Source: a virus
Lineage: Duplodnaviria > Caudoviricetes
Virus record (IMG/VR): IMGVR_UViG_3300021387_000661
Span: 64,001 to 128,000 of that record
Direction: 5' to 3' (one strand)
Length of the DNA stretch: 64,000 nucleotides
In this document: one piece after another, positions 1 through 54,483 of the stretch
How positions within the stretch are numbered: position 1 is the first letter of the stretch
How the letters are laid out: every line of letters begins with the position of its first letter
Notes under the pieces: model-generated
What the model saw: the letters and a program-made list of their open reading frames with translations, nothing else
What the model was told of the DNA's origin: nothing
Databases searched by the model: none
Made by a program: the position numbers and the translations under genes

Positions 1-687
1 CCAACCACTGTTTTTAACAAGTTCAAATACTTCATCAAATGTAAAGTAACAGTCTCCATCTTTTAATGAAAGGTCATCATCTGCCCACAAAACAGATCCT
101 CCCATATCAAGAGGTTTAAGAGATTTTATGTTTGTGAAATCATCTTCTTTCTTAACATCAGTTCCATTGCCTCTTCTCCTGATGTCATTCCAAACAGATT
201 CAGAAACATAATTCTTGTCTTTTACAAGGAAAACAAAAAGTCTGTTTATCGACTTGTTGAAGTTTGTAACATCAAAAACATTTGAATTATTAAATCCATA
301 TGCATATGCACTACTTGGGAATTTGGCATTGATTTCTTTTGTCCACATATGGAATCCATAACTTCCATTGGTCTTGAGTCTTAATTCATTTCCATCATAA
401 AATTTAAGGTGCTTACATCCTTCATACCAGGCAATCCTGATATTCCAATGCAACTGGTTCACTTCATCAACAGTAGGAAGTCTCCAACCATTATTGTTAT
501 AATCTTTTACATCATCAAAATGGAATTTCACCTCACCATCAATCTCAAGGTTGTCAATTGCCCAATAGATTGTTGTGTTTTCACCAAAGTCAACATAATC
601 TGGATTGAAAGCATCCTCTTGCTTGATATCAGTACCTATACCCCTTCTTCTGATGTCACTCCAGACTGATTCACTTAATTTCTTCAT
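1..687 (-). CDS. Tagged polyprotein-like protein, partial (runs off the left end); two ESxWxDIRRRG-tagged modules, each resembling the Bacteroidota 'VDLG...WA...WRLPT' (Lcl/DUF1566-like) domain
   Basis: Not in the ORF track (no stop inside the window). Translated by hand from ATG 687: MKKLSESVWSDIRRRGIGTDIKQEDAFNPDYVDFGENTTIYWAIDN...GWRLPTVDE...YVSESVWNDIRRRGNGTDVKKEDD...LDMGGSVLWADDDL... Confidence 0.75.
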   Translation of the reverse strand, partial: MKKLSESVWSDIRRRGIGTDIKQEDAFNPDYVDFGENTTIYWAIDNLEIDGEVKFHFDDVKDYNNNGWRLPTVDEVNQLHWNIRIAWYEGCKHLKFYDGNELRLKTNGSYGFHMWTKEINAKFPSSAYAYGFNNSNVFDVTNFNKSINRLFVFLVKDKNYVSESVWNDIRRRGNGTDVKKEDDFTNIKSLKPLDMGGSVLWADDDLSLKDGDCYFTFDEVFELVKNSGW

Positions 688-689
688 AG

Positions 690-1475
690 TTAATCTTTAA
701 ATTTTATGAATGCTACACCTTCTGTACCACTTGGATTGTTTTCATAATCCAATTCAAATTCTTTCAAATGTACCCATCCAAGTTTTGTATATGTGTCTAT
801 CAATTCTTTCCTTAAATCCTCATACCAGTTATCAAGCATAGGATATGTGATTATATGTATATCTTGAACCGTATCATAATCAACATCTTCTAATTCACAA
901 GGAGGTATTGTTGGATTTCCATCATCATCATACCAAGTTCCATCATCTTCATAGAGTATTGCACCACCAACATCATAATCAGTACCAATCAAATCATATA
1001 TGGTATATTTTGCAAATTCAGACATATGATTGTCTTCAAAAATCTTCTTTGTGTATTTGACAAGAATATCCTGGATTTCAAGTTCAGAACTATACATCTG
1101 CTCAAATCTTCCATTTTTAATCAACTCATCAATATAATCATCCCTGTCTTTATCTATATAATCTCTCAATACATAGACATCATATTCATCTTCACCAATA
1201 TCCCATTTATCACAACCAAATACACCTGCTATTTCTGTATCACCCCAGATTATGGTTGGATTGTTTTTGGGTCTATTAAATGCAAAACACCTCCAGGGGT
1301 CAGAGTTTTCTTCTTCATAAACATCTCCAAGTCCCCAGAAATCTTTCATAAGTTGATATTTAACACCATCAATGACAAGGGTAATACCTTTGTCTTCCTG
1401 TTTTACATCATCGCCAAGACCTCTTCTTCTGATGTCACCCCATATAGATTCAGTTATGTTACTTAATTTTTTCAT
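690..1475 (-). CDS. Hypothetical acidic protein with N-terminal ESxWxDIR tag (candidate internal head protein)
   Basis: Starts MKKLSNITESIWGDIRRRGLGDDVKQED; the rest is unlike its neighbours. Confidence 0.8.
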   Translation of the reverse strand: MKKLSNITESIWGDIRRRGLGDDVKQEDKGITLVIDGVKYQLMKDFWGLGDVYEEENSDPWRCFAFNRPKNNPTIIWGDTEIAGVFGCDKWDIGEDEYDVYVLRDYIDKDRDDYIDELIKNGRFEQMYSSELEIQDILVKYTKKIFEDNHMSEFAKYTIYDLIGTDYDVGGAILYEDDGTWYDDDGNPTIPPCELEDVDYDTVQDIHIITYPMLDNWYEDLRKELIDTYTKLGWVHLKEFELDYENNPSGTEGVAFIKFKD

Positions 1476-1490
1476 ATACTTCTCAATTTT

Positions 1491-2123
1491 TCATATACTT
1501 ATTAATATTCCAAATGAGTCCACAATGTCATCAATTGGTTTGATTACCTTATAATCAAGTTCATTCTCTTTACAGAACTTCCAGAATCCACACTTCTCAA
1601 TGTCTGGGTCTTTTATCCTGTTCTCAATAAATGCCTGGATCATATCTTCCTTCTTTGCATTTCCCTTACCGGAGAGATTCTTCTTTCCCTCTGTTGGAGA
1701 AATGATAACCAAACAGTCTTCACCAAAATCCTCCAGTAATTTAATCCTTAAAAATGAGTTGAACAGTGCCAGGTCCAGGGTCGATGATGATATACTTCCA
1801 TAAGAGAAACCTTCAAGTCCTATAATGACCTCTTCATCACCAACCAATTCTACCAATCTGTTTGAGATTTTGTTTGCGATCATTTTCGCAGCCCTCATCT
1901 TTGTTCTCTGTTCTTCCCTGTAGTCCTTCTTATCAATCTCCCTGGTGTATGGGTTGAGTTCTATAATACCTGAAAGTTGTCTGTGATAGTTGAAAGTCTT
2001 GTTCTTACCAGTCTTCCAGTCCTTTCCATAATCATCAAAGAAAGAGATGAAAGAATATTCACCATCTTTATATATACACACTGCCGGCGAAATCAAACTA
2101 TAATCTATTCCTATTTTAATCAT
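1491..2123 (-). CDS. RuvC-like Holliday junction resolvase (RNase H fold)
   Basis: IGIDYS strand, LEGFSYGS, SPTEGKK..SGKGNAKKEDM and DDIVDS acidic motifs typical of phage RuvC-like resolvases. Confidence 0.75.
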   Translation of the reverse strand: MIKIGIDYSLISPAVCIYKDGEYSFISFFDDYGKDWKTGKNKTFNYHRQLSGIIELNPYTREIDKKDYREEQRTKMRAAKMIANKISNRLVELVGDEEVIIGLEGFSYGSISSSTLDLALFNSFLRIKLLEDFGEDCLVIISPTEGKKNLSGKGNAKKEDMIQAFIENRIKDPDIEKCGFWKFCKENELDYKVIKPIDDIVDSFGILISI

Positions 2124-2620
2124 CTCAATGGTACTCCTTTTTCTCCATTAATTTCTGGTTCTTCCCTCAATACATACTCATTACTATATTTGTACACATA
2201 GAACTTCTTATTTTCAAGTCTGTATTTGATACTTCTTTTTTCCTGGATACTCATATCTGAATATTTTATAGGATTATAACTCTTGACACCATTGGCTTCC
2301 ATAGTATAGTTATCTGCACCATGTGATGTATTGTGGTAGATAGACAGATACCAGGCATCTTCATACTTGAAATGGATCCTTATTACATTTGGTTTCTCTA
2401 TATTCATCACTTTTTCAAGAGGCCATATGATGAGGTCATAAAGGAAATCATACAATCTCAATTCAGTTGATTTATACTTTGGTACAATATCAATAAGTAT
2501 GTTTCTCCACCAGTGTTCATAATCCTGTTCTGGTAAATCTTCCTGTTTGATGTCAGAACCTATACCTCTTTTTCTGATGTCATTCCAAACACTTTCAGTT
2601 ATACTACTCAGCTTCTTCAT
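2120..2620 (-). CDS. Hypothetical protein with N-terminal ESxWxDIR tag
   Basis: MKKLSSITESVWNDIRKRGIGSDIKQED; stop overlaps the start of the RuvC-like gene. Confidence 0.8.
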   Translation of the reverse strand: MKKLSSITESVWNDIRKRGIGSDIKQEDLPEQDYEHWWRNILIDIVPKYKSTELRLYDFLYDLIIWPLEKVMNIEKPNVIRIHFKYEDAWYLSIYHNTSHGADNYTMEANGVKSYNPIKYSDMSIQEKRSIKYRLENKKFYVYKYSNEYVLREEPEINGEKGVPLR

Positions 2621-3410
2621 CTACTGTAAACCAATTTTTAGTATATTCTTTATATTTCTTGAAGTTCTTCACTGTTGTTGCTGTGATAGGGATGCCAATG
2701 TTACAAGCATAATCATTGAATGACCAGACAATGAAAACAACATCATCTAATTCAGGGAATGTGTCAATCATACTTTCTTTATAATCAATTAAACTGGAGG
2801 CAGTACTTCCTTCGCCATATTTATCAGTATATTGTATTTCCCAATCATAAACATCTGATTCATCAATTAACTGTAAGATATAATCACTTTCATAATAAGA
2901 TATATTATCAAATTTTGTTTCAATAAAACCACCTTTATGTCTTGGTAGGTATGCAATGTCTCCACCAATCTCTTTTAGTTTGGTTGCAATACCTTTACAG
3001 ATTGATATATAGTCTTCTTCAGATACTCTGTCTTCAAAGTCATCCAGGTCAAAGTCTTTCATTTCATCATATGTCAAGAAATCTGCAATCAGGTCTGTAC
3101 CATGTCCTCCATCATATATAAGATATGTATAAGGTGCTTCAAATGCCCTGATGTTTTTCATTTCTTCTGGGGAATATGCCTTATCTCTGGTATTCAAGAT
3201 TGCAACCCTACATTCAACATAACTATCATTGTAATTAAGGATTTCTTTTATGAGTTCTTCATAATAAGAATCAGAAGCATTTTTCAGATAGATATCTACA
3301 TCAATACAAGTGTGAACTTTTTTACCATCCTCTTGTTTTACCTCAGTACCTATACCCCTTTTTCTGATGTCATTCCATACTGATTCTGTTATATTACTTA
3401 ATTTTTTCAT
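2604..3410 (-). CDS. Hypothetical acidic protein with N-terminal ESxWxDIR tag
   Basis: MKKLSNITESVWNDIRKRGIGTEVKQED; first gene after the minus-strand CATAAATA at 3432-3439. Confidence 0.8.
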   Translation of the reverse strand: MKKLSNITESVWNDIRKRGIGTEVKQEDGKKVHTCIDVDIYLKNASDSYYEELIKEILNYNDSYVECRVAILNTRDKAYSPEEMKNIRAFEAPYTYLIYDGGHGTDLIADFLTYDEMKDFDLDDFEDRVSEEDYISICKGIATKLKEIGGDIAYLPRHKGGFIETKFDNISYYESDYILQLIDESDVYDWEIQYTDKYGEGSTASSLIDYKESMIDTFPELDDVVFIVWSFNDYACNIGIPITATTVKNFKKYKEYTKNWFTVDEEAE

Positions 3411-7117: not shown

Positions 7118-7984
7118 ATGGATTTTGATGATATTTTTAATAATTCATTTGAGAAAAAGATAGAAGATAAGAACTTGGTGAACTTCAAGGTAAATGAATG
7201 TAGGAGACTTATTCTTGAGAAGTTTGGAGACATTAAGTTTATTGAGGAAGGTCATCAGTATTTTATTGGGGAGGAAGAATACATTCCTGTTAGTAACATC
7301 ATTAAAGAATATGAACCCGAAGTTGACTGGGATCAGAAAGCAGAAGATTATGCCAGAAAGTGGGGAAAAAAAAAGGAGGATGTACAGAAGGAGTGGAAAC
7401 TCAATAATCTGAAATCAACTATTTCCGGGACTAGGACACACTCTTTTGGTGAGAGTTATACCAATCTGTTGTGTGGTCATCCTGAACTCATCTGTGAGCA
7501 GAATAAACCACAGTATATTGAGGAATACAACACAATGGTTTCCACCTATCCAAAGGAGGATGCAGTGAAGAAGTTTTATGATGAATTGGAGACCAATTTA
7601 CATCCTATTGGTGCAGAGTTTAAACTTTCTTCAGAATACATAAAAGAATCCAGATCCATCTGTGGTACTTGTGACCTTTTGTTTTATGACAGTGAGAAAG
7701 ATGCTTATGTGATTGGTGACTGGAAGACAAACAAGTCATTGATAAAGGAATTTTCCAGGACTAATGGAATTCATATGACAGGGTGTATGAGTAAGTTTGT
7801 TGATGAACCTCTTTCACATTATACACTTCAATTCAATATTTATCAGAGAATGCTTGAATCTGTTGGATTGAAGATAATTGACAGGATACTGATATGGTTG
7901 AAGGATGATGGAACATATGAAAGGATAAATATTGAGAAGATTCCAGATAATGTTGTAGATAAGATTTTGAAAGGTGAGGATTAA
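7118..7984 (+). CDS. PD-(D/E)xK exonuclease (RecB/Cas4-like family)
   Basis: GTRTH, ICGTCDLLF, IGDWKTN and YTLQFNIY motifs. Confidence 0.8.
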   Translation: MDFDDIFNNSFEKKIEDKNLVNFKVNECRRLILEKFGDIKFIEEGHQYFIGEEEYIPVSNIIKEYEPEVDWDQKAEDYARKWGKKKEDVQKEWKLNNLKSTISGTRTHSFGESYTNLLCGHPELICEQNKPQYIEEYNTMVSTYPKEDAVKKFYDELETNLHPIGAEFKLSSEYIKESRSICGTCDLLFYDSEKDAYVIGDWKTNKSLIKEFSRTNGIHMTGCMSKFVDEPLSHYTLQFNIYQRMLESVGLKIIDRILIWLKDDGTYERINIEKIPDNVVDKILKGED

Positions 7985-8012: not shown

Positions 8013-10769
8013 ATGAGTACAACCAATGAATCAATATGGAATGACATCAGGAGAAGAGGTAATGGTTCTGATGTGAAGAAAGAAGATGATGTGAATCTTC
8101 TAGATATAGATGGACTCTATGATTATATCAAATCCAAATATGAGAAATATGTATTTGATTTAGATAAGGACACATTTGGTATATTAAATAAAAGGAATAT
8201 TGTTGTAGATATAATATCCAATGTGAGTCTGTTTACATCATATGATAAAAGTGGTAAATTGGATCACATTCTTTTATCTTGGACAAAAGTAAAGATAGGA
8301 ATGCCATTCTTTGATAAACTTTCAGAAAGGTTTAATGTACAATCACCAAATGTGTGTAGAAGAAGGATTACTGAAAAGGATGGTACCTGTACAAACCAGA
8401 CATATATAGATGTTATTGATTTCTTTTTGAAAAATATGGACAATATGTTAGTTAATGAATCAATATGGAATGACATTAGAAGAAGAGGTAATGGTGATGG
8501 CGTCAAGCAGGAAGAATTTACAGAAGAATTTATAGATAAAGTAAAATCGGATTTAATTTGTTTTACTATGTCAGTTGTAAATTATATAGAGAATTATGAA
8601 CTGACATTTGATGGTTTTTACAAGTATTTGGAAGAAATTGAGAATCCAGATGAAGTCAAAAAAATCATTTATTATGTAAAAACTCATAAAGATGAATGTG
8701 ATAAACTTTTAGAAAAAGACATCAAATTTGAAAATAAATTACTAGATGAAAAGATTAATGTCTATTTATTGAGATTTGTTGACAATATTGTATATGATGA
8801 AAAGTATCATAATACATTGTCAGATATAAAAAAGTTTGCATCTGAAATTTTTAAAGGACATAAAAGTTCATATGATTTCCATATAAACAAAAAACTGGTT
8901 TTTAAGGATAAGTCTGAATTGTTTAATGACTATATTGAAGATAAATGGGAAGACGGTTCTCTTAAACAAAAGATTGATGATTTGATTAAAAATGAAAATG
9001 ATGAAATATCCAAATATGGATTTGTAAAAGAACCAGGAAAAACCATATCTGAAACAGTTAATGATTGGTGGTATTCATTGGATGAAGACAAAAGAAATGA
9101 TTTGGGATGGGATGAATTTGGAGAAGATGCAGAAGGAGAATACTATTCAGATCACAATCCTGATTATAATGAATATACTGGTGAAGATTTTGAAGCAGAT
9201 GAGTGGTGGGATGATGCATATGGTATAAGAAGGGTTAAAATCTATTGTAGTGAACATTCAAAAACAAATGAGTCAGTTTGGGGTGACATCAGGAAACAAG
9301 GTCTTGGAGATACCTTAAAGAAAGAAGATGATCCATTTGTAGATAGAGATATAGATTCTTTATCCAAGTATGAGTTCTGTGATTATTTGAATTTTCATTA
9401 TGAACCACTTATGGGAAGGAGTATTCACACAAATGAACATACAAGAGAAGTGACAATACCTATATACATCCATCAAGGATATGCACATATGTATGCAACA
9501 TTTAATGATGATTCAAAACTTGTAGATATAAGTCTTCCTCTTACACAAAAAAATCCTCCAAGATTATATAATAGGATGTGCAAGAAATTTAATGTTATCC
9601 ACACAAGGCCACACTGGTCATATATTAAACCAATTGATGGTGATGAATTGACCAATACATTTTGTCTTGAAGTGATTGATTTTATTCTTGAGAATGTTAA
9701 TCATCCTTTACTGAAAAAGATTGTCTTACACAAGGTGAAAAAATTAAATGAATCAGTTTGGGGTGACATCAGAAAAAGAGGTAATGGTACTGATGTAAAG
9801 AAAGAAGATGAGATGACACAAGATGATTTGGAAGCACTTAATGATTTTATATTTGGATTTGCAACAAGAGTAGTATGGGATGGAGTGAGGGATTCTTTGA
9901 CAAATTTCTTAAAATATATTGATGAAAATCCTGAAGCACTTGACTGTGACATTGATAGGGTAAAGAAGTATGTTGAAGATAATTGGCATAAAAGTATATG
10001 TGATGATGTTGAAGCAGCAATAGAACAGGAAGATAAGGAAAAAGAAGAAGGTATGAATGAATCCATTTGGAATGACATCAGAAGAAGAGGTAATGGTACT
10101 GATGTAAGGAAAGAAGATGATATGACTTCTGATGATTATAGGAATTTGAAGGTAATATTGAAGATGTTTGGTCGTGAGGTCAGATTCTTTGGTAATCATA
10201 AAAACCAGAAATTCTTTCCAGTAAATGCCAAGAAATATGAAATTACTCTTGAAGACTGTTTGTATTTCATTGATGTACTTGTTGACGGTAAATTTACGGG
10301 TGCTGATTTTTCTAAACTGAAAAGATATATTGAAGTAAATTGGGAACGAGACCCTATGATTAAGAACATTATACAATGGACTGTTGATGGTAAAAATTCA
10401 AAAGAAATTGACCAAGAAATCAGGAATGCCTCAAAAAGTGATGAGTTTTGGGATTTGAATGAATGTGATGGTGTCCCTGGTGGATTAACACCTGCTGATG
10501 TAGGTGGAATGGGATCTGCATATTTTCCTGGACCAAATGGAGAACCTGGTTCCGGAGACCTTCCATTGCCAACTGGAATAGTTTATAAACAAGTTGCACC
10601 TTTTGATACATTTATCAAAATGAGAAGACCAAAAAAGAATAAAAAGAAAAAGTTCAGAAAGGAAGATGAACTATGTGTTCATAGTGAAAATCCACCAATA
10701 TATAGTCATGTTGATGATTTTAGAGATTATGTGGATAGGACATATAATAATATTGATAAAAGGAAATAA
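8013..10769 (+). CDS. Modular polyprotein: five ESxWxDIR-tagged modules plus a C-terminal capsid-N-arm-like segment
   Basis: Tags at ~8025, 8454, 9267, 9747 and 10056; ATG 8013 preferred over GTG 7974 because the promoter lies between them. Confidence 0.8.
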   Translation: MSTTNESIWNDIRRRGNGSDVKKEDDVNLLDIDGLYDYIKSKYEKYVFDLDKDTFGILNKRNIVVDIISNVSLFTSYDKSGKLDHILLSWTKVKIGMPFFDKLSERFNVQSPNVCRRRITEKDGTCTNQTYIDVIDFFLKNMDNMLVNESIWNDIRRRGNGDGVKQEEFTEEFIDKVKSDLICFTMSVVNYIENYELTFDGFYKYLEEIENPDEVKKIIYYVKTHKDECDKLLEKDIKFENKLLDEKINVYLLRFVDNIVYDEKYHNTLSDIKKFASEIFKGHKSSYDFHINKKLVFKDKSELFNDYIEDKWEDGSLKQKIDDLIKNENDEISKYGFVKEPGKTISETVNDWWYSLDEDKRNDLGWDEFGEDAEGEYYSDHNPDYNEYTGEDFEADEWWDDAYGIRRVKIYCSEHSKTNESVWGDIRKQGLGDTLKKEDDPFVDRDIDSLSKYEFCDYLNFHYEPLMGRSIHTNEHTREVTIPIYIHQGYAHMYATFNDDSKLVDISLPLTQKNPPRLYNRMCKKFNVIHTRPHWSYIKPIDGDELTNTFCLEVIDFILENVNHPLLKKIVLHKVKKLNESVWGDIRKRGNGTDVKKEDEMTQDDLEALNDFIFGFATRVVWDGVRDSLTNFLKYIDENPEALDCDIDRVKKYVEDNWHKSICDDVEAAIEQEDKEKEEGMNESIWNDIRRRGNGTDVRKEDDMTSDDYRNLKVILKMFGREVRFFGNHKNQKFFPVNAKKYEITLEDCLYFIDVLVDGKFTGADFSKLKRYIEVNWERDPMIKNIIQWTVDGKNSKEIDQEIRNASKSDEFWDLNECDGVPGGLTPADVGGMGSAYFPGPNGEPGSGDLPLPTGIVYKQVAPFDTFIKMRRPKKNKKKKFRKEDELCVHSENPPIYSHVDDFRDYVDRTYNNIDKRK
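8025..10120 (+). repeat. Five dispersed ~65-bp in-frame repeats encoding NES(I/V)W(N/G)DIR(R/K)xGxGxxxKxE(D/E)
   Basis: Visible in both DNA (core TGACATCAG) and protein; five more copies on the minus strand in 142-3410. Confidence 0.9.
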
Positions 10770-41471: not shown

Positions 41472-43115
41472 ATGAATAAATTGGAAGTACTGAAATATAT
41501 AACTGACCATAATAAAGAATTTGCTGGTAGATTGGTTACAGAAATTGGATTCAAAAAACATTTTCCAGAATTGTATGAAGAAATGTCAAAGATTGAATAT
41601 CCTGATTCTTTTTCATCATTTGATTTCAAACAAAAGTTGTGGCATTTTTTAAGGGATGATTATACAATTCATTATTGTAAATGTGGTGGACTTTTGAAAT
41701 TCAGGAGTTTTTGGTATGGTTACAATGAATTTTGTAGGATGAATTGTCCGGCAATGGTTGAAAACCAAAAAAAATGTGTTGTTGAAAAAAATAAAACAAG
41801 GACAGATGATGAAAAGAAGCAGATATATAATAAAGTGAAAGACACATTTTTGAAGAAATATGGAGTTGAAAGGTATTCGCAAACAAAAGAATGGAAAGAA
41901 AAAACACTTCAAAAAAATAGAGAGAAATTTGGTACTGACTGGTATACACAAACAGAAGAATATAAAAAAGAATATGAAAAACATTGTATAGATAAATATG
42001 ATGTTAAAAATGCATTCCAGGCAGAAGATGTAAAGGCAAAAATACTTAATAAATTTTATGACAGTTTCAAATCAAGACATAAGAATGTAATAGAAATAAA
42101 GAAAGATACATTATTGTGTAAATGTACTGATGAAACTTGTACATTATGTGAAAAGAAAATATATGAGATAAAAAAGACAACATTTTCTGATAGGATATGC
42201 CACAATATAGATACTTGTACAATAAGAACACCATATGGAGACATATGTTCTGGTAGTGAAACATTTGTTTGGGAATATATTAAAAGCATATATAATGGAT
42301 GTATAATAAAGAATGACAGGTCTGTTTTATTGGGTAAAGAACTTGACATTTATCTTCCTGAATTGAATATAGCATTTGAATTCAATGGGGTTTATTGGCA
42401 TAATGAATTCAATAAACCAAGGTATTATCATCAAGAAAAATCTTTGGAGTGTAAAGAAAAAGGTATTCAGTTGATACATATATGGGAAGATGACTGGTTA
42501 TATAGGAATGATATAGTAAAAGATATTATAAAATCAAAACTTGGTTTATCTGATTTCAATATAGGTGCCAGGAAGTGTGAAATTAGAAATGTATCAAACA
42601 AGGATGCAATTGATTTCTTGAACAAATACCATATCCAAGGTGGAGTTTTAAATGGTAAATCAATAGGTCTGTATTATCAAAATAATCTTGTTGAAATATT
42701 GACATTTGGTCAATTGAGAAAAAATATGGGAAGTATACCTGAAAATGAAAAATATGAAATTTACAGGGTATGTTCAAAGGCAGGATATAATATTCAAGGT
42801 GGATTTAGTAGATTACTTCATTTTTTTGAAACTGAATATAAACCAAAAGAAATAATAACATATGGCAATTTGGATTATACTTATGGAAATGTTTATCTTA
42901 AGTGTGGATTTATAGAATGTGGATTATCTGCTCCAACTTATACATGGGTTGTTGATGGAAAAAGATGCCATAGGTCTAATTTTATGAAATCAAAATTGGA
43001 TGAATGTAAATCAAATCCAGAATTGACGGAAAGCGATGTTATGCACAGTAGAGGATGTTGGAAATGTTGGGATGCAGGAAAAATAAAATTTATAAAAATA
43101 TATGAAAGAGGGTAG
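41472..43115 (+). CDS. Free-standing homing-endonuclease-like protein (Hef-like C-terminal region)
   Basis: Shared N-terminal FPELY..QKLWHF..CKCG module, KYGVE repeat, ELDIYLPELNIAFEFNGVYWH, IHIWEDDW, GARKCEIR. Confidence 0.75.
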   Translation: MNKLEVLKYITDHNKEFAGRLVTEIGFKKHFPELYEEMSKIEYPDSFSSFDFKQKLWHFLRDDYTIHYCKCGGLLKFRSFWYGYNEFCRMNCPAMVENQKKCVVEKNKTRTDDEKKQIYNKVKDTFLKKYGVERYSQTKEWKEKTLQKNREKFGTDWYTQTEEYKKEYEKHCIDKYDVKNAFQAEDVKAKILNKFYDSFKSRHKNVIEIKKDTLLCKCTDETCTLCEKKIYEIKKTTFSDRICHNIDTCTIRTPYGDICSGSETFVWEYIKSIYNGCIIKNDRSVLLGKELDIYLPELNIAFEFNGVYWHNEFNKPRYYHQEKSLECKEKGIQLIHIWEDDWLYRNDIVKDIIKSKLGLSDFNIGARKCEIRNVSNKDAIDFLNKYHIQGGVLNGKSIGLYYQNNLVEILTFGQLRKNMGSIPENEKYEIYRVCSKAGYNIQGGFSRLLHFFETEYKPKEIITYGNLDYTYGNVYLKCGFIECGLSAPTYTWVVDGKRCHRSNFMKSKLDECKSNPELTESDVMHSRGCWKCWDAGKIKFIKIYERG

Positions 43116-48177: not shown

Positions 48178-48237
48178 AAATAAGTAAAAATTATTTTCAT
48201 AAATACCATATAAAATATATAAGAAAATCATTTGAAA

Positions 48238-50199
48238 ATGAAAGAGAAGAAACTATTGATAGTAGAACGCTCTAATGCTCCACTTAATTATTCAGTGGAA
48301 CAGGCATTGAATGAAAACAATGAACACAGCGATTCTATAGTATTAACTGGACTTTTCACATCATTCAATACTAAAAACCGTAACGGCAGAATTTATGAGT
48401 CTGCTGATTTCCTTCCACATGTTGAGGCATTGAGGGAACAGATTGAAAGTAAGAGACTTCTTGGTGAGTTGGATCATCCACATGGATTTGAAATCTCACT
48501 TGGTAATGTTTCTCATGTTGTTGAAAGTCTTGAATTTGACCCACAACAGAATGCTATTGTAGGTAAGATTAGACTCCTTAATACTACTGCTGGTAAGGAA
48601 GCACAGGCACTTGTAAGAGATGGTATTCCATTGAATATCTCATCAAGGGCTGCTGGTACTGTGGATGAATCTGGACATGTTAAACTCCAGCAGTTGTTTA
48701 CATATGACCTTGTTGCAGACCCTGGTTTTGCAAATGCACAGCTTAAGAGGGTTAATGAGTCATATGGATTTGGTGATGATGATAATATTGACATCTATGA
48801 TATTTCAGAAGATGCCAATACAGAGTTGGATCCACAGGTGACCAAGACTGCCGATTATGCAGAACCACAGGCACAGAAGAATGAAGATACATTAAAAAAT
48901 ACAAATATGGAAGACAATAATAATGAATTCATCCAATATGGTGATTTCCAGAAGTACAGTGAACATCTGTCAGAGATTGTCGGTGAACTCCAGTCTGCCA
49001 TTTCTAACATCAAGGATGAGTTAATTAGTTATAAGGAGAAGGGTGGTGAAACTCCTACCCAGACCTTTGATGCTGCTAATATTGATAATTCAATGATTGC
49101 AGACCTTGTTGCAAAAGAGGTTGCAAGGATTACCGGTGAAGGTGCTGCTGTTGTTGGCGGTACAGATGCAAAGGCAGATACTGCTGCTCTTGAATCAAAA
49201 TTAGCAGAGATTGAAGAGAAGTATAACAATCTTAAGGCATACACTAATTATCTTGCTGAAACTCTTGACAAGTCTATTATTCATCAGGATTATATTGCTG
49301 ATGAGGCAAACAAGGTTATTGAACATAACAATTATCTTGCTGAAAGTATGAATAAGATGATTGGTCATCAGGATTATCTTGCAGAGAAGATGAATCAGAT
49401 GATTGCACATCAGGATTATCTTGCTGAAAATATCAATGATACTATTTCTTATCAGAACTATGTGGCAGAAATGTTGGATAAGTCTATTGACTATTCAAAT
49501 ATGCTTGCTGAGGAACAGAACAAGAGTATTGCCCATAATGATTACCTTGCAGAGAAGATGAATCAGATGATTGAACATCAGGATTACATTGTTGAGGAAG
49601 TTAATAAGATTGGTGGTAATGTCCTTGAAGAGAACAAGACAGAAGACACAAAGTCAGAAGAAACTCCTGCTGAAAATGTTAATGAAAACAATGAAGTAAA
49701 GACAGAGGAAACTCCTGTTGAGGAAAACAAGACAGAAGATACAAAGTCAGAAGAAACTCCTGTTGAAAAGTTTGATACAAAGGCATACCAGACAGCACTT
49801 ACTGAAAAACTTGATGCTATCCTTGCTGCTGCAAAGGCACAGTATGCTGAAGCAAAGAGACTTGAGGAAGAGGCAATTAAGGAATCAAAGAAGAATGTTG
49901 ATACAAAGAACTTCACACTTATCAACTATATGCCTGAAAGACTCCAGGAAAGATGGTCAAAACTTTCTGATGAGAGAAAGCAGGAAATTCTTGCAGAGTC
50001 CAAAATGTTTGTAATTAGTAATGAAGCAAGTGCAGTTTATTTCTGGAACACACGTGATTTCAGAGACAAGCAGGTAGAACTTCAGAAGATTGATGAATCT
50101 GCTGTTGCACAACCAAATGCCATCAATGAAAATACTGTTTCTGAAGAAAGGCTCAATGCAATGAAAGAGCAGATTCAGAAAAGAATGAGGAGATGGTAA
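48238..50199 (+). CDS. gp21: Prohead core protease (T4 gp21-like) fused to a scaffold/core domain
   Basis: KNRNGRIYE, LGELDHP, VSHVV, ISSRAAG and TYDLVADPGF motifs; long acidic coiled-coil C-terminus; ATG 48238 preferred over TTG 48232. Confidence 0.9.
   Translation: MKEKKLLIVERSNAPLNYSVEQALNENNEHSDSIVLTGLFTSFNTKNRNGRIYESADFLPHVEALREQIESKRLLGELDHPHGFEISLGNVSHVVESLEFDPQQNAIVGKIRLLNTTAGKEAQALVRDGIPLNISSRAAGTVDESGHVKLQQLFTYDLVADPGFANAQLKRVNESYGFGDDDNIDIYDISEDANTELDPQVTKTADYAEPQAQKNEDTLKNTNMEDNNNEFIQYGDFQKYSEHLSEIVGELQSAISNIKDELISYKEKGGETPTQTFDAANIDNSMIADLVAKEVARITGEGAAVVGGTDAKADTAALESKLAEIEEKYNNLKAYTNYLAETLDKSIIHQDYIADEANKVIEHNNYLAESMNKMIGHQDYLAEKMNQMIAHQDYLAENINDTISYQNYVAEMLDKSIDYSNMLAEEQNKSIAHNDYLAEKMNQMIEHQDYIVEEVNKIGGNVLEENKTEDTKSEETPAENVNENNEVKTEETPVEENKTEDTKSEETPVEKFDTKAYQTALTEKLDAILAAAKAQYAEAKRLEEEAIKESKKNVDTKNFTLINYMPERLQERWSKLSDERKQEILAESKMFVISNEASAVYFWNTRDFRDKQVELQKIDESAVAQPNAINENTVSEERLNAMKEQIQKRMRRW
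49240..49600 (+). repeat. 14-aa tandem repeats (..HQDYLAE..) in the scaffold region
   Basis: About nine periodic Y(L/I/V)AE-type units in the translation. Confidence 0.8.
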
Positions 50200-50933: not shown

Positions 50934-52661
50934 ATGTTACAGAATGTTATTTTGAACGAGGCTGAAGTTTTGAAAACTTGGTCAGGTTTTATTACTGAGT
51001 CAACTGGCGTTACTGATCGTGCTAAATTGACTTGGATGTCAAAGTACTGTGCTTATCATGATATGAATGAGAAGCAGAGTCTTAATGAGAGTGCTCTTGG
51101 TTATGCACATCTCAATCCTAATATGAATGTTGGTGGTATGGGTGCTGCTTACTTCCCAGGTGCAAATCCTAACAATGGTTATGATGGTGTACGTGGTTCA
51201 GGTGATAACCCATTCTCACTCCTTCCTCTTGCAGTTCAGGTCGCAGCTCAGACAATCGCTCTTGACCTTGTTCCTGTAGTTCCTATGCAGGGTCCTCTTG
51301 GCATCCTCCAGTATATGGACTATGTATACGAAGGTGGTAAGACTAACTTCCGTCCTCGTTTCGAGGGTGCAGATGAGTCAAAAACTGCTCCTCTTATGGT
51401 TAAGTTGACTCTTTCAAAGGGTGACGCTAATTCAGACAGTGATGTTGAGAATGCTCTCAAGTCAGATGCTGCTCTTATAAATGAAGATGCTATTGCACAT
51501 GCAGCAAGTTTCAAGGAACTCCGTGAGGATTTCAAGCCTCATATGGCTCCTATTACTATCGGTGACTTTGAGCTCATCTTTGTTGCTCTTGGTCGTATTG
51601 ATGGTCGTCCTATCTTCCAGGTAAAGGAGAAGTCATATTTTGGTGGTAATCCTCTTAATGGTGGTGAAGGTGCTGGTGCTACTCTTGCTGAAACTCTTCT
51701 TACAGATGAGAAGGTTATCCTTGACAAGTACTATGTAGTTGACATTGACACTGTAAAGGCTCTTGAGGACTTCATCCCTGGTTTTACTGGTGCTGGTTTC
51801 AAGAATGGTGATCCTATGTCTGCACAGTCATATGACAGAGAGACTGGTGAATCAACTCCTTCAAACATTATGTCACTCAACACCTTCACATTGAGTGTGA
51901 AGGCTAAGACCATCCAGGTTAAGGGTGCTATCACTCGTGAGCAGATCCAGGATCTTAAGGCTTATGGTATTGATGCAGTTGCTCAGGTAGAAGCAGAGCT
52001 TGTAAATGAGTTGACACAGCATATCAACCGTGAAATCCTTAATGAGATCTTCGCACTTGGTGATCAGAACCATGTTGAAGCAGAGGCATTTGAGGGTATC
52101 AACCTTAATACCTACTTTGTTGTAGATCCTGCTGATGCTGATGTTGAGGGTTATGTTAAGTCATATGTTGGTGGTGGTGCTGAAACCCTTGGCACAATCC
52201 AGAGAAGAATTATGAGTAAGGTTCTTGCTGCTTCCAACCTCATCGCACAGAGAGGTCGTAGAGGTGCTGGTACATTTGCAGTATGCTCAGCAGCTATTGC
52301 AACAGCTCTTCAGGATTGCGCTGGTTTCACCGCTTATCCACTTTCAAATACAATCAACCAGAATGCTGGTTCTCTCTACCCAGTAGGTGCAATTTCAGGT
52401 GTATCTATCTATGTAGATCCTAACCTCCCTTGGAGTGCAACTAAGATAGTTGTTGGTAGAAAGGGTAAGGACAATGAGCCTGGTCTTGTGTTCATGCCTT
52501 ACTTGATGGCTGACAAACTCTCATATCCTGCAGAGGGTATGGAAGGTGCTCCTGTTACTTCATTGAAGTCAAGATATGCTCTTGTTCGTGCAGGTCATCA
52601 TCCACAGTTGTACTACTACTCATTTGACATCAAACTTGGTAATGGTGTAAGTCTTTATTAA
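50934..52661 (+). CDS. gp23: Major capsid protein (T4 gp23-like)
   Basis: AQTIALDLVPVVPMQGP, TREQIQDLK, ELTQHINREIL, RRGAG, GLVFMPY, LKSRYAL; high-expression codon bias; CATAAATA at 50816. Confidence 0.95.
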   Translation: MLQNVILNEAEVLKTWSGFITESTGVTDRAKLTWMSKYCAYHDMNEKQSLNESALGYAHLNPNMNVGGMGAAYFPGANPNNGYDGVRGSGDNPFSLLPLAVQVAAQTIALDLVPVVPMQGPLGILQYMDYVYEGGKTNFRPRFEGADESKTAPLMVKLTLSKGDANSDSDVENALKSDAALINEDAIAHAASFKELREDFKPHMAPITIGDFELIFVALGRIDGRPIFQVKEKSYFGGNPLNGGEGAGATLAETLLTDEKVILDKYYVVDIDTVKALEDFIPGFTGAGFKNGDPMSAQSYDRETGESTPSNIMSLNTFTLSVKAKTIQVKGAITREQIQDLKAYGIDAVAQVEAELVNELTQHINREILNEIFALGDQNHVEAEAFEGINLNTYFVVDPADADVEGYVKSYVGGGAETLGTIQRRIMSKVLAASNLIAQRGRRGAGTFAVCSAAIATALQDCAGFTAYPLSNTINQNAGSLYPVGAISGVSIYVDPNLPWSATKIVVGRKGKDNEPGLVFMPYLMADKLSYPAEGMEGAPVTSLKSRYALVRAGHHPQLYYYSFDIKLGNGVSLY

Positions 52662-52687: not shown

Positions 52688-52724
52688 AAAAAAGAGAGAA
52701 ATTGAAAAATTTCTCTCTTTTTTT
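52688..52724 (+). terminator. Intrinsic terminator after the major capsid gene
   Basis: aaaagagagaaatt/aatttctctcttttt. Confidence 0.7.
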
Positions 52725-52776
52725 GTTATATTTATATAGGATGACATCCACAGCAAAAAATATTTTTATAACATTT

Positions 52777-54483
52777 ATGGAGAAAATTGAGTTATTTAAG
52801 TATTTACAATCTATTGAAGATAAATCTGGTGGATTTAAGAAACCAGATTCTATCAAGAAGAATTACCCAGAAATTTATGATGAACTTGAGAGAGTAGATT
52901 TCCCAAAAGAATATACATTTATCCAGAAATTGTGGCATTTCTTACAAGATGATTATACAATTCATAGATGTAAATGTGGAAATCCGGTTCATTTTATAGA
53001 TTTCAAAAAAGGTTATAGACAATATTGTTCTAAAACTTGTCCAAGTGTTGTTGAGTATAATAAATCAACAATACAGAATGCACAAGTTGTTTCCAGAAGA
53101 AAGGAATCCAGGGATAAAGCTGTTAATACTACAAAGAAAAAACATAATGGAAACTTTTGGTCTGATGAACAGTTACACAGAATTCAAGAAAATATTGTAA
53201 ATAATAGGAAAGTAATAAATGAGAAGAATAAAGTTAAAATCAAGGAATATATAAAAGAGTTCAAAGAATTATCTGGAAAAGGAATTTCTGGTTGTTCTTC
53301 AAGAGTTGAGATTGATTTTTATAAGTATTTAATCAACACTTTTGGTTTTGATAATGTAGATCCCCAACATTATGATGATACTTATCCATATTCTTGTGAT
53401 TTCTTCATTCCTGGACTCAATCTTTATATAGAAATCCAAGGTAGTTGGACACATGGGAAGCATCCATTTGATACTAATAATTCCAAGGATGTAGAAAAAC
53501 TCAATTACTGGAAAAGTAAGGATAATGAGTATTACAATAATGCAATCTATACCTGGACAGATTTAGATGTCAGGAAGAGAGTGTGTGCAAAAGACAATCA
53601 TCTTAATTATCTTGAAATCTTCTCTAATAAAATAGATGATTGTATTAATATATTTGAAAATTACCTTACTGAAAAGATTGTTGATTATTGTCTGACTCAA
53701 GATCTTCCAGGGAATGGTAAATGGCCTGCAAATCATCCTATTTGGGATTGTTATGTTGGTAAGAATATTTCTCCAAGGGATGCTTGGTATAAGAGAGATT
53801 ATTTGACTAAGGCAGTTAAGAATATCTTCTATATGTTACCAAAAGATGAAAAATTCAGAATCAAGCATATCTATGAATTATTGAACTGTAAGATGGAAGA
53901 TGGAAAAATTATCAATTCAACACAGAAATTTCTTCAACAGATACAGGATAGGTTTACTATTGCCAAGATCGCCCCAAAGGTGACAGCAATTTCTGAATAC
54001 AGTGTAAAGAAAATTATAGATGAATCAGGTATTGATATTACCAGGGGTGTATATGTACCAATGTCTGGATTTGGTGGGATTATAGATGGTGTCAAATTGT
54101 GGGGAAAGGAACATAATAAAGAAGTTGAATGTGAATGTTATGACATCAATCAGAGGTTATGTGACTGGTATGGATGGAAACAGAGGGATATGTTGGCGCA
54201 AAAGGTGACCACTGACAAAGTGTGTATCTGTTGTCCTCCTTTTGGTGAGAAATATGAACACTGGAAAGGAACACCAAGGGAGATGAGTGATATTGATTTC
54301 AAGGAGTGGTATAAATTGATAAAGGAATATGTCATTGCTCCGGAGTATATTATAATCGGTCCTGAAGTTGACAAGACAGGAACTGGAAGTAACAAGGGAT
54401 TGGATACTGGTGGTAAGAAACAATCAGGATTATTCACAAAAACTGTTGGAATTATGATGTGGACTGATGATATGGTGTATTAA
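52777..54483 (+). CDS. Homing-endonuclease-like protein fused to a DNA methyltransferase-like domain
   Basis: Shared N-terminal module, YSCDFFIPGLNLYIEIQGSWTHG nuclease, then VYVPMSGFGG (motif I-like) and CCPPF (motif IV-like); ATG 52777 preferred. Confidence 0.6.
   Translation: MEKIELFKYLQSIEDKSGGFKKPDSIKKNYPEIYDELERVDFPKEYTFIQKLWHFLQDDYTIHRCKCGNPVHFIDFKKGYRQYCSKTCPSVVEYNKSTIQNAQVVSRRKESRDKAVNTTKKKHNGNFWSDEQLHRIQENIVNNRKVINEKNKVKIKEYIKEFKELSGKGISGCSSRVEIDFYKYLINTFGFDNVDPQHYDDTYPYSCDFFIPGLNLYIEIQGSWTHGKHPFDTNNSKDVEKLNYWKSKDNEYYNNAIYTWTDLDVRKRVCAKDNHLNYLEIFSNKIDDCINIFENYLTEKIVDYCLTQDLPGNGKWPANHPIWDCYVGKNISPRDAWYKRDYLTKAVKNIFYMLPKDEKFRIKHIYELLNCKMEDGKIINSTQKFLQQIQDRFTIAKIAPKVTAISEYSVKKIIDESGIDITRGVYVPMSGFGGIIDGVKLWGKEHNKEVECECYDINQRLCDWYGWKQRDMLAQKVTTDKVCICCPPFGEKYEHWKGTPREMSDIDFKEWYKLIKEYVIAPEYIIIGPEVDKTGTGSNKGLDTGGKKQSGLFTKTVGIMMWTDDMVY

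Follow-up and report, generated by a model that had tools for sequence, protein, structure and literature searches.

We analysed a window of 64,000 nucleotides, positions 64,001 to 128,000 of the IMG/VR virus record IMGVR_UViG_3300021387_000661. Coordinates given without an accession count from the first nucleotide of this window. The host genome of the window is that of a T4-related giant gut phage; it has 344,746 bp, a G+C content of 34.7% and an estimated completeness of ~94%. At 8013-10769 the window encodes a polyprotein in which five units, each carrying a short tag, are followed by a terminal module. The first part of this module resembles the predicted mature N-terminus of the major capsid protein (MCP) of the same phage. 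The polyprotein gene has the following features (a slash marks the predicted cut, and P1' is the residue behind it; aa, amino acids).

8013..10769, plus strand: polyprotein gene, 918 aa from ATG, with five tagged units and the terminal module
8022..10127, plus strand: five x-N-E/S sites, each followed by a tag of ~22 aa; P1' codons at 8031, 8460, 9273, 9753 and 10062
10455..10466, plus strand: predicted last (sixth) protease site, L-N-E/C; within the module family the P1' Cys never varies and the Glu hardly does
10464..10766, plus strand: terminal module, 101 aa, predicted mature small basic protein (17 Lys + Arg, 14 Asp + Glu)
10464..10598, plus strand: look-alike of the MCP N-terminus, the first 45 aa of the module; 18 Gly + Pro, with GGMG-x-AYFPG, GSGD and an LP-x-P...QVA stretch
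10617..10661, plus strand: polybasic tract of 15 aa, 11 of them Lys or Arg
10719..10760, plus strand: conserved C-terminal helix, VDD[FY]R-x-YV-x-RTY region, the sole regular element predicted by AlphaFold2 (AF2)

The annotated start of the gene is the ATG at 8013, and the database form (P0004, 918 aa) is identical; a GTG at 7974 merely opens the reading frame. No family was assigned to the polyprotein in Pfam or PHROG searches. At the N-terminus there is a 6-residue leader that is unlike the capsid targeting sequence (CTS) of T4, and ~817 residues of tagged units precede the module. The tags of the polyprotein follow the pattern S-[IV]-W-x-D-I-R...K-x-E-D. Genome-wide, ~27 copies of a ~22-residue tag of the form E/S-[IV]-W-x-D-I-[RK]...K-x-E-D were counted across ~15 frames, and within the window they lie at about 142-3410 (minus strand) and 8013-10127. 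The tag stands behind short MKKLS-type leaders, right after the start Met or between the domains of multi-unit proteins. Relatives carry the variants W-S-D-M-Q-D-R and W-S-D-I-H-K-R.

The capsid protein and the protease that bear on the module are encoded further downstream.

48232..50199, plus strand: prohead protease (S77, T4 gp21 type) fused to a repeat-rich scaffold, just upstream of the MCP gene
50934..52661, plus strand: MCP of the gp23 family, the sole PF07068 gene in the genome
51081..51089, plus strand: predicted MCP maturation site L-N-E (residues 50-52), with the cut before S53; the next Glu is E133
51090..51245, plus strand: MCP residues 53-104, which the look-alike copies; colinearity with T4 gp23 makes them the N-fist and the start of the N-arm

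The maturation site of the MCP was assigned from the specificity of T4 gp21, L/I-x-E (PMC9026906). Cleavage of the x-N-E sites is expected from the protease encoded at 48232..50199.

The polyprotein ends in a likeness of the mature MCP N-terminus

The likeness had been noticed in a sequence-only reading of the window, which quoted two peptides from 10455-10571 and 51081-51230. Both were confirmed, and GGMG begins 13 residues behind the cut in the polyprotein and 14 residues behind it in the MCP. The very basic stretch that had been described behind the look-alike is likewise present. A six-frame translation of the whole genome contains GGMG-x-AYFPG at two places only, and the same holds for GGMG alone and for a fuzzy core motif. 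These two copies, each with its GSGD, follow the LNE site of the MCP and the last LNE site of the polyprotein. The search for other GGMG..PG..GSGD proteins that had been proposed with the sequence-only reading was carried out on the genome, and only the MCP and the polyprotein carry the motif.

Comparison of the polyprotein end with the MCP end by BLASTP resulted in an E value of 6e-8. When the tail was compared with the 3,464 six-frame open frames of at least 40 aa, the MCP was the sole significant match (E 1.25e-4), with the runner-up at ~1. For the reverse search, 36 sliding 45-aa pieces of the MCP were used as queries. Only the pieces over residues 31-105 matched another frame. This second frame was the polyprotein (best E 4.9e-6), and the remaining pieces gave E values of at least 0.029. 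In a shuffle test the likeness had a z score of 9.3, and none of 2000 shuffles reached the observed score. The same codon is used at just 5 of the 20 shared degenerate residues. Thus, the likeness is old and has been kept at the protein level rather than being a recent DNA copy. It does not extend beyond the MCP sequence left after cleavage.

The AF2 model of the module alone was mostly coil, with a single C-terminal helix and a mean pLDDT (predicted local distance difference test score) of 59. The module has no Pfam match, including to the HK97-type fold of PF07068, and its likeness spans only MCP residues ~53-104. By eye, the C-terminal helix had seemed similar to the scaffold C-terminus; a BLAST search of all genome frames gave no support for this.

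The copied segment and its counterpart in T4 gp23

Residues 105-132 of the MCP align colinearly with gp23 104-131, and therefore MCP 53-104 corresponds to gp23 66-103. The N-fist of T4 gp23 comprises residues 66-91 (PMC9546572, PMC9958956, PMC7136217). In the unexpanded prohead, residues 66-105 of gp23 are disordered inside the shell, and expansion externalises the segment as N-fist and N-arm (PMC9546572, PMC9958956). On the outer surface the N-fist binds four adjacent subunits and is part of the Soc site, and the portal-facing N-fists remain disordered (PMC9546572, PMC9958956, PMC7136217). By homology, the MCP segment of the window phage would be loose inside the prohead and located outside after expansion. 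With a mean pLDDT of 51.5 and values below 50 at residues 46-152, the AF2 model of the MCP was of use neither for mapping the arm nor for a fold search. Prediction of a complex of two copies of MCP 113-575 with module residues 1-60 gave a score of 0.00, which speaks neither for nor against an interaction.

Segment 53-104 is kept in the MCPs of relatives. Judged by its MCP, the window phage is closest, among phages with complete genomes, to the uncultured huge phages LR756500-LR756504, to the Lak phages and to jumbo phages of Bacteroidota, for example Tenacibaculum phage PTm1. GMG...GSGD behind an x-x-E site is retained in the MCPs of LR756500, LR756501, LR756502, PTm1, PAU and MA9V-1. In the MCPs of Lak phages GSGD is present and GVG replaces GMG.

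The sequence-only reading had explained the likeness by a specific form of capsid mimicry. The segment was thought to bind the N-arm groove on the inner capsid surface and to tether the whole polyprotein in the prohead, by a packaging route distinct from the targeting sequence of T4. In its favour, the likeness is real and conserved and a basic tract lies behind it. However, the homologous segment of T4 is externalised on expansion (PMC9546572, PMC9958956), which by analogy disfavours a groove on the inner surface. We consider this form of the idea improbable, also in view of the gene arrangements and leaders described below.

Two further observations concern the head-gene block. In the scaffold part of the 48232-50199 fusion, a unit of ~14 residues with the ending H-[QN]-D-Y-[LI]-A-E is repeated in tandem about nine times, and there are many x-N-E sites. 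The block is flanked by the long open reading frames (ORFs) 41472-43115 and 52702-54483, which have an N-terminal segment in common (K-L-W-H-F-L-x-D-D-Y-T-I-H-x-C-K-C-G) and may be homing-endonuclease-like paralogues.

The terminal module forms a conserved family

For the family search, the last 132 residues of the polyprotein were compared with 1.84 billion representative proteins at E values up to 1e-3. The resulting module family consists of 53 protein clusters. The module is always C-terminal (in proteins of 85-1159 aa) or stands alone as a protein of ~110 aa behind a short leader that ends in Glu. The leaders of stand-alone modules are roughly 5-30 aa long. In an alignment of 30 members, C1 behind the cut, GMG, PG, GSGD and a few aromatic or acidic positions of the tail were invariant. 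These residues include exactly those common to the module and the MCP. Conservation of the motif in polyprotein homologues, the absence of which had been named as a refutation of capsid mimicry, therefore holds over the whole family. Three members retain the longer spacer of the MCP, N-P-N-N-G-Y-D-G-[VE]-R.

Upstream of the module, the proteins are variable and consist of tagged units strung together. One IMG/VR relative encodes the module as a gene of its own, which overlaps the tagged gene before it and has the same exonuclease gene upstream as in the window. The genome of the window itself also encodes sibling tagged polyproteins that lack the terminal module. Both arrangements argue against the proposed tethering of the whole polyprotein.

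We also looked for co-variation in 11 paired genomes of the clade of the window. Modules of the D/N type occur with D-type MCPs in 4 of 4 cases and with A-type MCPs in 1 of 7. This is only suggestive, as the cases are not phylogenetically independent.

The invariant Cys (10464) starts the module after the cut. A second Cys (10671-10673) lies in E-D-E-[PL]-C-x-H and is kept in most members. A disulfide or a metal site is possible for these two residues. Look-alikes of other lineages start with D, S or N instead of Cys.

Other huge phages carry look-alikes of their own MCP

Look-alikes in other lineages were found with degenerate DNA patterns or with the MCP segment of each phage as query; the module of the window, used as a protein query in five related records, gave no matches. 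ORF-299 of Tenacibaculum phage PTm1 contains an MCP look-alike with an E value of 4.9e-9 per genome. Further look-alikes are encoded by two small frames in LR756502, one in LR756501 and one in LR756500 (E 3.1e-7). Lak-C1 has a weak look-alike (E 0.005) without a Glu before it. In all other copies an x-x-E site lies 9-15 residues ahead of G-[MI]-G; for PTm1, LR756501 and LR756502, the distance from cut to motif is 9-15 residues in the look-alikes compared with 10-11 in the MCPs. A basic tract follows the look-alike in every lineage, Lak-C1 included, and it is via this tract that a hidden Markov model of the module aligns to the LR756500 and LR756501 proteins. When six look-alikes were scored against seven MCP segments, the MCP of the own phage was the best match in all six cases. 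In MaF61, a DNA pattern with a gap of 30-60 nucleotides gave no match; its own MCP segment was not used as a query.

The look-alike genes of LR756502, LR756501 and LR756500 (L009, L020 and L050) lie among clusters of small genes with leaders such as MKHLKKFE-, MKYIKLFE- and MEFVKTYLEFINE-. These leaders resemble the T4 targeting sequence and may be the sign of numerous head-internal proteins in huge phages. The leaders upstream of the LR756501 and LR756502 look-alikes are CTS-like, that is to say of the targeting type.

One of the LR756502 copies shares 18 of 22 codons with its MCP. Thus, re-copying at the DNA level does occur, and in the clade of the window (5 of 20 codons) it has not happened recently. 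The LR756502 copy would fit the idea that the look-alike is a functionless remnant of recombination between an MCP gene and a cargo gene. Against such a remnant, the MCP-like residues are invariant over the 53 clusters while synonymous sites are randomised, and the design spans phages from T4 to those with genomes of 735 kb. We find a mere remnant hardly credible.

ORF-299 of PTm1 (L015:4795-5628) encodes 277 aa and has the portal gene on one side and the protease-scaffold gene on the other, at the place that gp67/gp68 occupy in T4. Its look-alike is internal, with x-x-E sites on either side. The protein has no Pfam family; a ParB-like domain that had been guessed for it was dropped after Pfam gave no match.

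The map position of ORF-299 bears on the main rival explanation. According to this, the look-alike binds a scaffold or core component that the internal N-terminal region of the MCP touches before expansion. Like gp67 and gp68, the protein would then join the assembly where core and shell meet, and it may affect head size. In T4, gp23 66-105 lies inside the unexpanded prohead and probably contacts the core, as the length-altering mutations A66D, A94V and G97S suggest (PMC9546572). In addition, the C-terminal half of gp68 is basic and gp67 weakly resembles gp23 51-67. On the other hand, GMG and GSGD hardly vary from lineage to lineage (a comparison that did not include the scaffolds), and the likeness leaves out the cleaved-off propeptide, which is the usual scaffold-binding part. 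The MCPs of PAU, MA9V-1 and pT24 carry the motif or a variant of it, and no look-alike was found in these phages with a search of limited sensitivity. We therefore judge a shared core partner to be unlikely.

T4 gp61.1 carries a look-alike of the gp23 N-fist

Residues 56-125 of gp23 were used as a query on the T4 genome. The search identified gene 61.1, which encodes a hypothetical protein of 54 aa (NP_049649.1), with an E value of 1.9e-5 per genome.

NC_000866 18966-19130 (L065:967-1131), minus strand: T4 gene 61.1, with a leader, an I-K-E site, a gp23 copy and KKKK

The leader of gp61.1 is MKTFKEFIKE, and its pattern is present four times in T4, only in ipI, ipII, ipIII and 61.1. Behind I-K-E, 28 residues are 50% identical to gp23 66-93. 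The likeness starts at P1', so that the two proteins are in register zero. Alignment of gp61.1 with gp23 gave a Smith-Waterman score of 82; shuffled sequences scored 21 +/- 3.8, and 0 of 5000 reached the observed score. The C-terminal part consists of the KKKK run and an acidic end. In a search of the whole PDB with gp61.1, gp23 chains were the only matches.

Conservation of the protein extends over 1,389 phage records. The gp61.1 segment forms the end of a protein of ~150-165 aa in RB43, Ac42 and Miro, behind a domain of ~105-145 aa. Several GenBank records annotate gp61.1 orthologues as 'major capsid protein', for example in Klebsiella phage Miro (L069); presumably, these labels are an automatic echo of the N-fist likeness. 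In the T4-like phages the preference of the look-alike for its own MCP is weak, and the diagonal sum ranks second of 120 permutations, because their gp23 N-fists are nearly identical. In the literature searched there was no account of gp61.1 as a head protein and no mention of its likeness to gp23. Its sequence suggests that gp61.1 is a fourth head protein of T4 with a CTS, one that has gone unrecognised.

A packaging route distinct from that of T4 had been part of the sequence-only reading. This is difficult to reconcile with gp61.1, which combines a targeting leader of the internal protein (IP) type with a gp23 look-alike. Since both are present, the look-alike would remain once the leader is cut off, and it does not replace the leader. 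The leaders of the LR756501 and LR756502 copies speak against a separate route in the same way. What stands of the earlier proposal is its general part: the likeness is significant, conserved and recurs in distant lineages, and some form of capsid mimicry is therefore very likely.

The constant spacing raised the question whether the segment 10-40 residues past the cut serves as an exosite for the protease, so that the protein is cut together with the MCP. The kept distance (13 and 14 residues in the window, register zero in T4) is consistent with such docking or timing, and the S77 protease is a conserved possible partner. However, ~27 other predicted sites in the genome bear a different tag and have no look-alike, and T4 gp21 reportedly requires hardly more than L/I-x-E (PMC9026906). 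An exosite is thus very unlikely to be the explanation.

The RNA of 61.1 is classed as early, like that of ipI-III, and the protein is unclassified in that data set (PMC9697503, supplementary file 4). Early RNA would be compatible with a decoy that is injected with the DNA and occupies a host defence sensor for the capsid N-terminal region, and internal proteins of T4 such as IPI can be injected anti-defence factors (PMC3012670). Such a decoy lacks a known sensor for the segment and leaves the basic tail unexplained, and we regard it as highly improbable.

Proposed role of the look-alike

We favour the reading that the look-alike serves a small DNA-binding head protein as a docking element after cleavage and not as a packaging signal, and give it a probability of roughly 45%. 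The likeness excludes the propeptide of the MCP, it begins in near-equal register from the new N-terminus, and elsewhere it is combined with a separate targeting leader. These three features point to an element that would act after the maturation cut. The module would enter the prohead within the tagged polyprotein, and in relatives via a short T4-like targeting leader. The protease would free it when the MCP is cut, and its capsid-like N-terminus may then go where the freed N-termini of the MCP go. As docking target we favour sites of the MCP lattice without an N-fist of their own, for example beside the vertices or the portal, while the basic tail would stay on the packaged DNA. Lattice sites that lack their own arm are thus our first choice, with the prohead core-shell boundary as the principal competing location.

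Several observations weigh against post-cleavage docking. A sequence search of the deposited chains (not of the maps) found no gp61.1 chain in the published T4 head structures. An internal peptide would, by analogy, need to be threaded through the shell as the arm of the MCP itself is. We looked for a vertex paralogue of the gp24 type, which would leave lattice sites without an arm, but the gene content with its single PF07068 gene does not support it. The lack of a detected look-alike in PAU, MA9V-1 and pT24 means that the element is not obligatory, and the likeness to the own MCP may come partly from gene conversion rather than co-adaptation. Finally, alignment of the window module with gp61.1 by hhalign gave a probability of 0.5%, that is, no direct sequence similarity. 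This is because each copies its own MCP N-terminus, and these are very different. To judge by the alignments, module and gp61.1 are linked by design alone.

To our knowledge, the N-terminal targeting sequence is the only element for which the positioning of non-scaffold proteins in T4-type heads is understood, and we know of no account of what holds DNA and cargo relative to the shell. If docking after the cut is true, small basic proteins with a conserved copy of the capsid N-terminus would represent a second principle of positioning, one that operates after cleavage. More generally, phages of the T4 superfamily, from T4 to the 735-kb phages, might share a class of small head proteins. In these, a copy of N-fist and N-arm would plug arm-less sites near vertices or portal after the cut and so rivet a basic DNA-binding tail, sometimes with fused cargo, to the shell. 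We put this generalisation forward as a tentative one, with clearly less confidence than the docking role itself. The T4 member, gp61.1, is an uncharacterised ORF of 54 residues and makes the function of the design testable in T4. The design also accounts for the label 'major capsid protein' that some annotation pipelines give to these small genes. The literature searched on capsid-mimic cargo and megaphage polyproteins contained no account of the design.

Comparison with known systems

The closest counterparts of the module are gp61.1 and its orthologues in Straboviridae. They have a leader or an upstream domain, a Glu site, an MCP look-alike in register and a polybasic tract near the C-terminus. 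The module shares with them the protease-type site upstream in the register of the MCP, the likeness to the N-terminus of the own MCP and the downstream polybasic tract near the C-terminus. In T4 and RB43, a short acidic or mixed tail may come after the polybasic tract. In contrast to the module, gp61.1 has no counterpart of the conserved C-terminal helix.

The T4 proteins IPI, IPII, IPIII and Alt are small and often basic; they enter the prohead core and are cleaved behind L/I-x-E by the protease of the gp21 type (PMC9026906). In the window, a conserved L-N-E/C site and an S77 protease gene are present, which at the sequence level is compatible with cleavage of the gp21 type. The stand-alone relatives of the module resemble the CTS proteins in their short leaders; those of the LR756501 and LR756502 copies are CTS-like, and that of gp61.1 is a true CTS type. 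Unlike the CTS proteins, the module of the window is the last unit of a polyprotein and has no N-terminal propeptide of ~10-19 residues of the MKT[YF][QK]EF type. Moreover, the CTS of T4 is an N-terminal propeptide that is removed, whereas the MCP look-alike is located after the cut, is capsid-like and would be retained.

T4 gp67 and gp68 are likewise small head-assembly proteins that are cut by the protease. The basic C-terminal half of gp68 and the map position shared with PTm1 ORF-299 add to this resemblance. Between residues 33-48 of gp67 (L042:6782-7024) and gp23 51-67, which lie right ahead of the gp23 cut, there is a weak resemblance (E 0.17 in a search of four proteins). Unlike the look-alikes, gp67 has its weak likeness on the propeptide side and does not contain a copy of the N-fist.

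A more distant parallel is found in adenovirus, where N-terminal peptides of the pVI and pVII precursors share one site in the hexon cavity and compete for it, and one of the two proteins is basic and condenses DNA. These viruses differ in lineage and fold, and the shared peptides are propeptides and not copies of the major capsid protein. The sequence finding reported here is robust. What is new is a retained copy of the mature MCP N-terminus that tracks the MCP of the phage in which it occurs.

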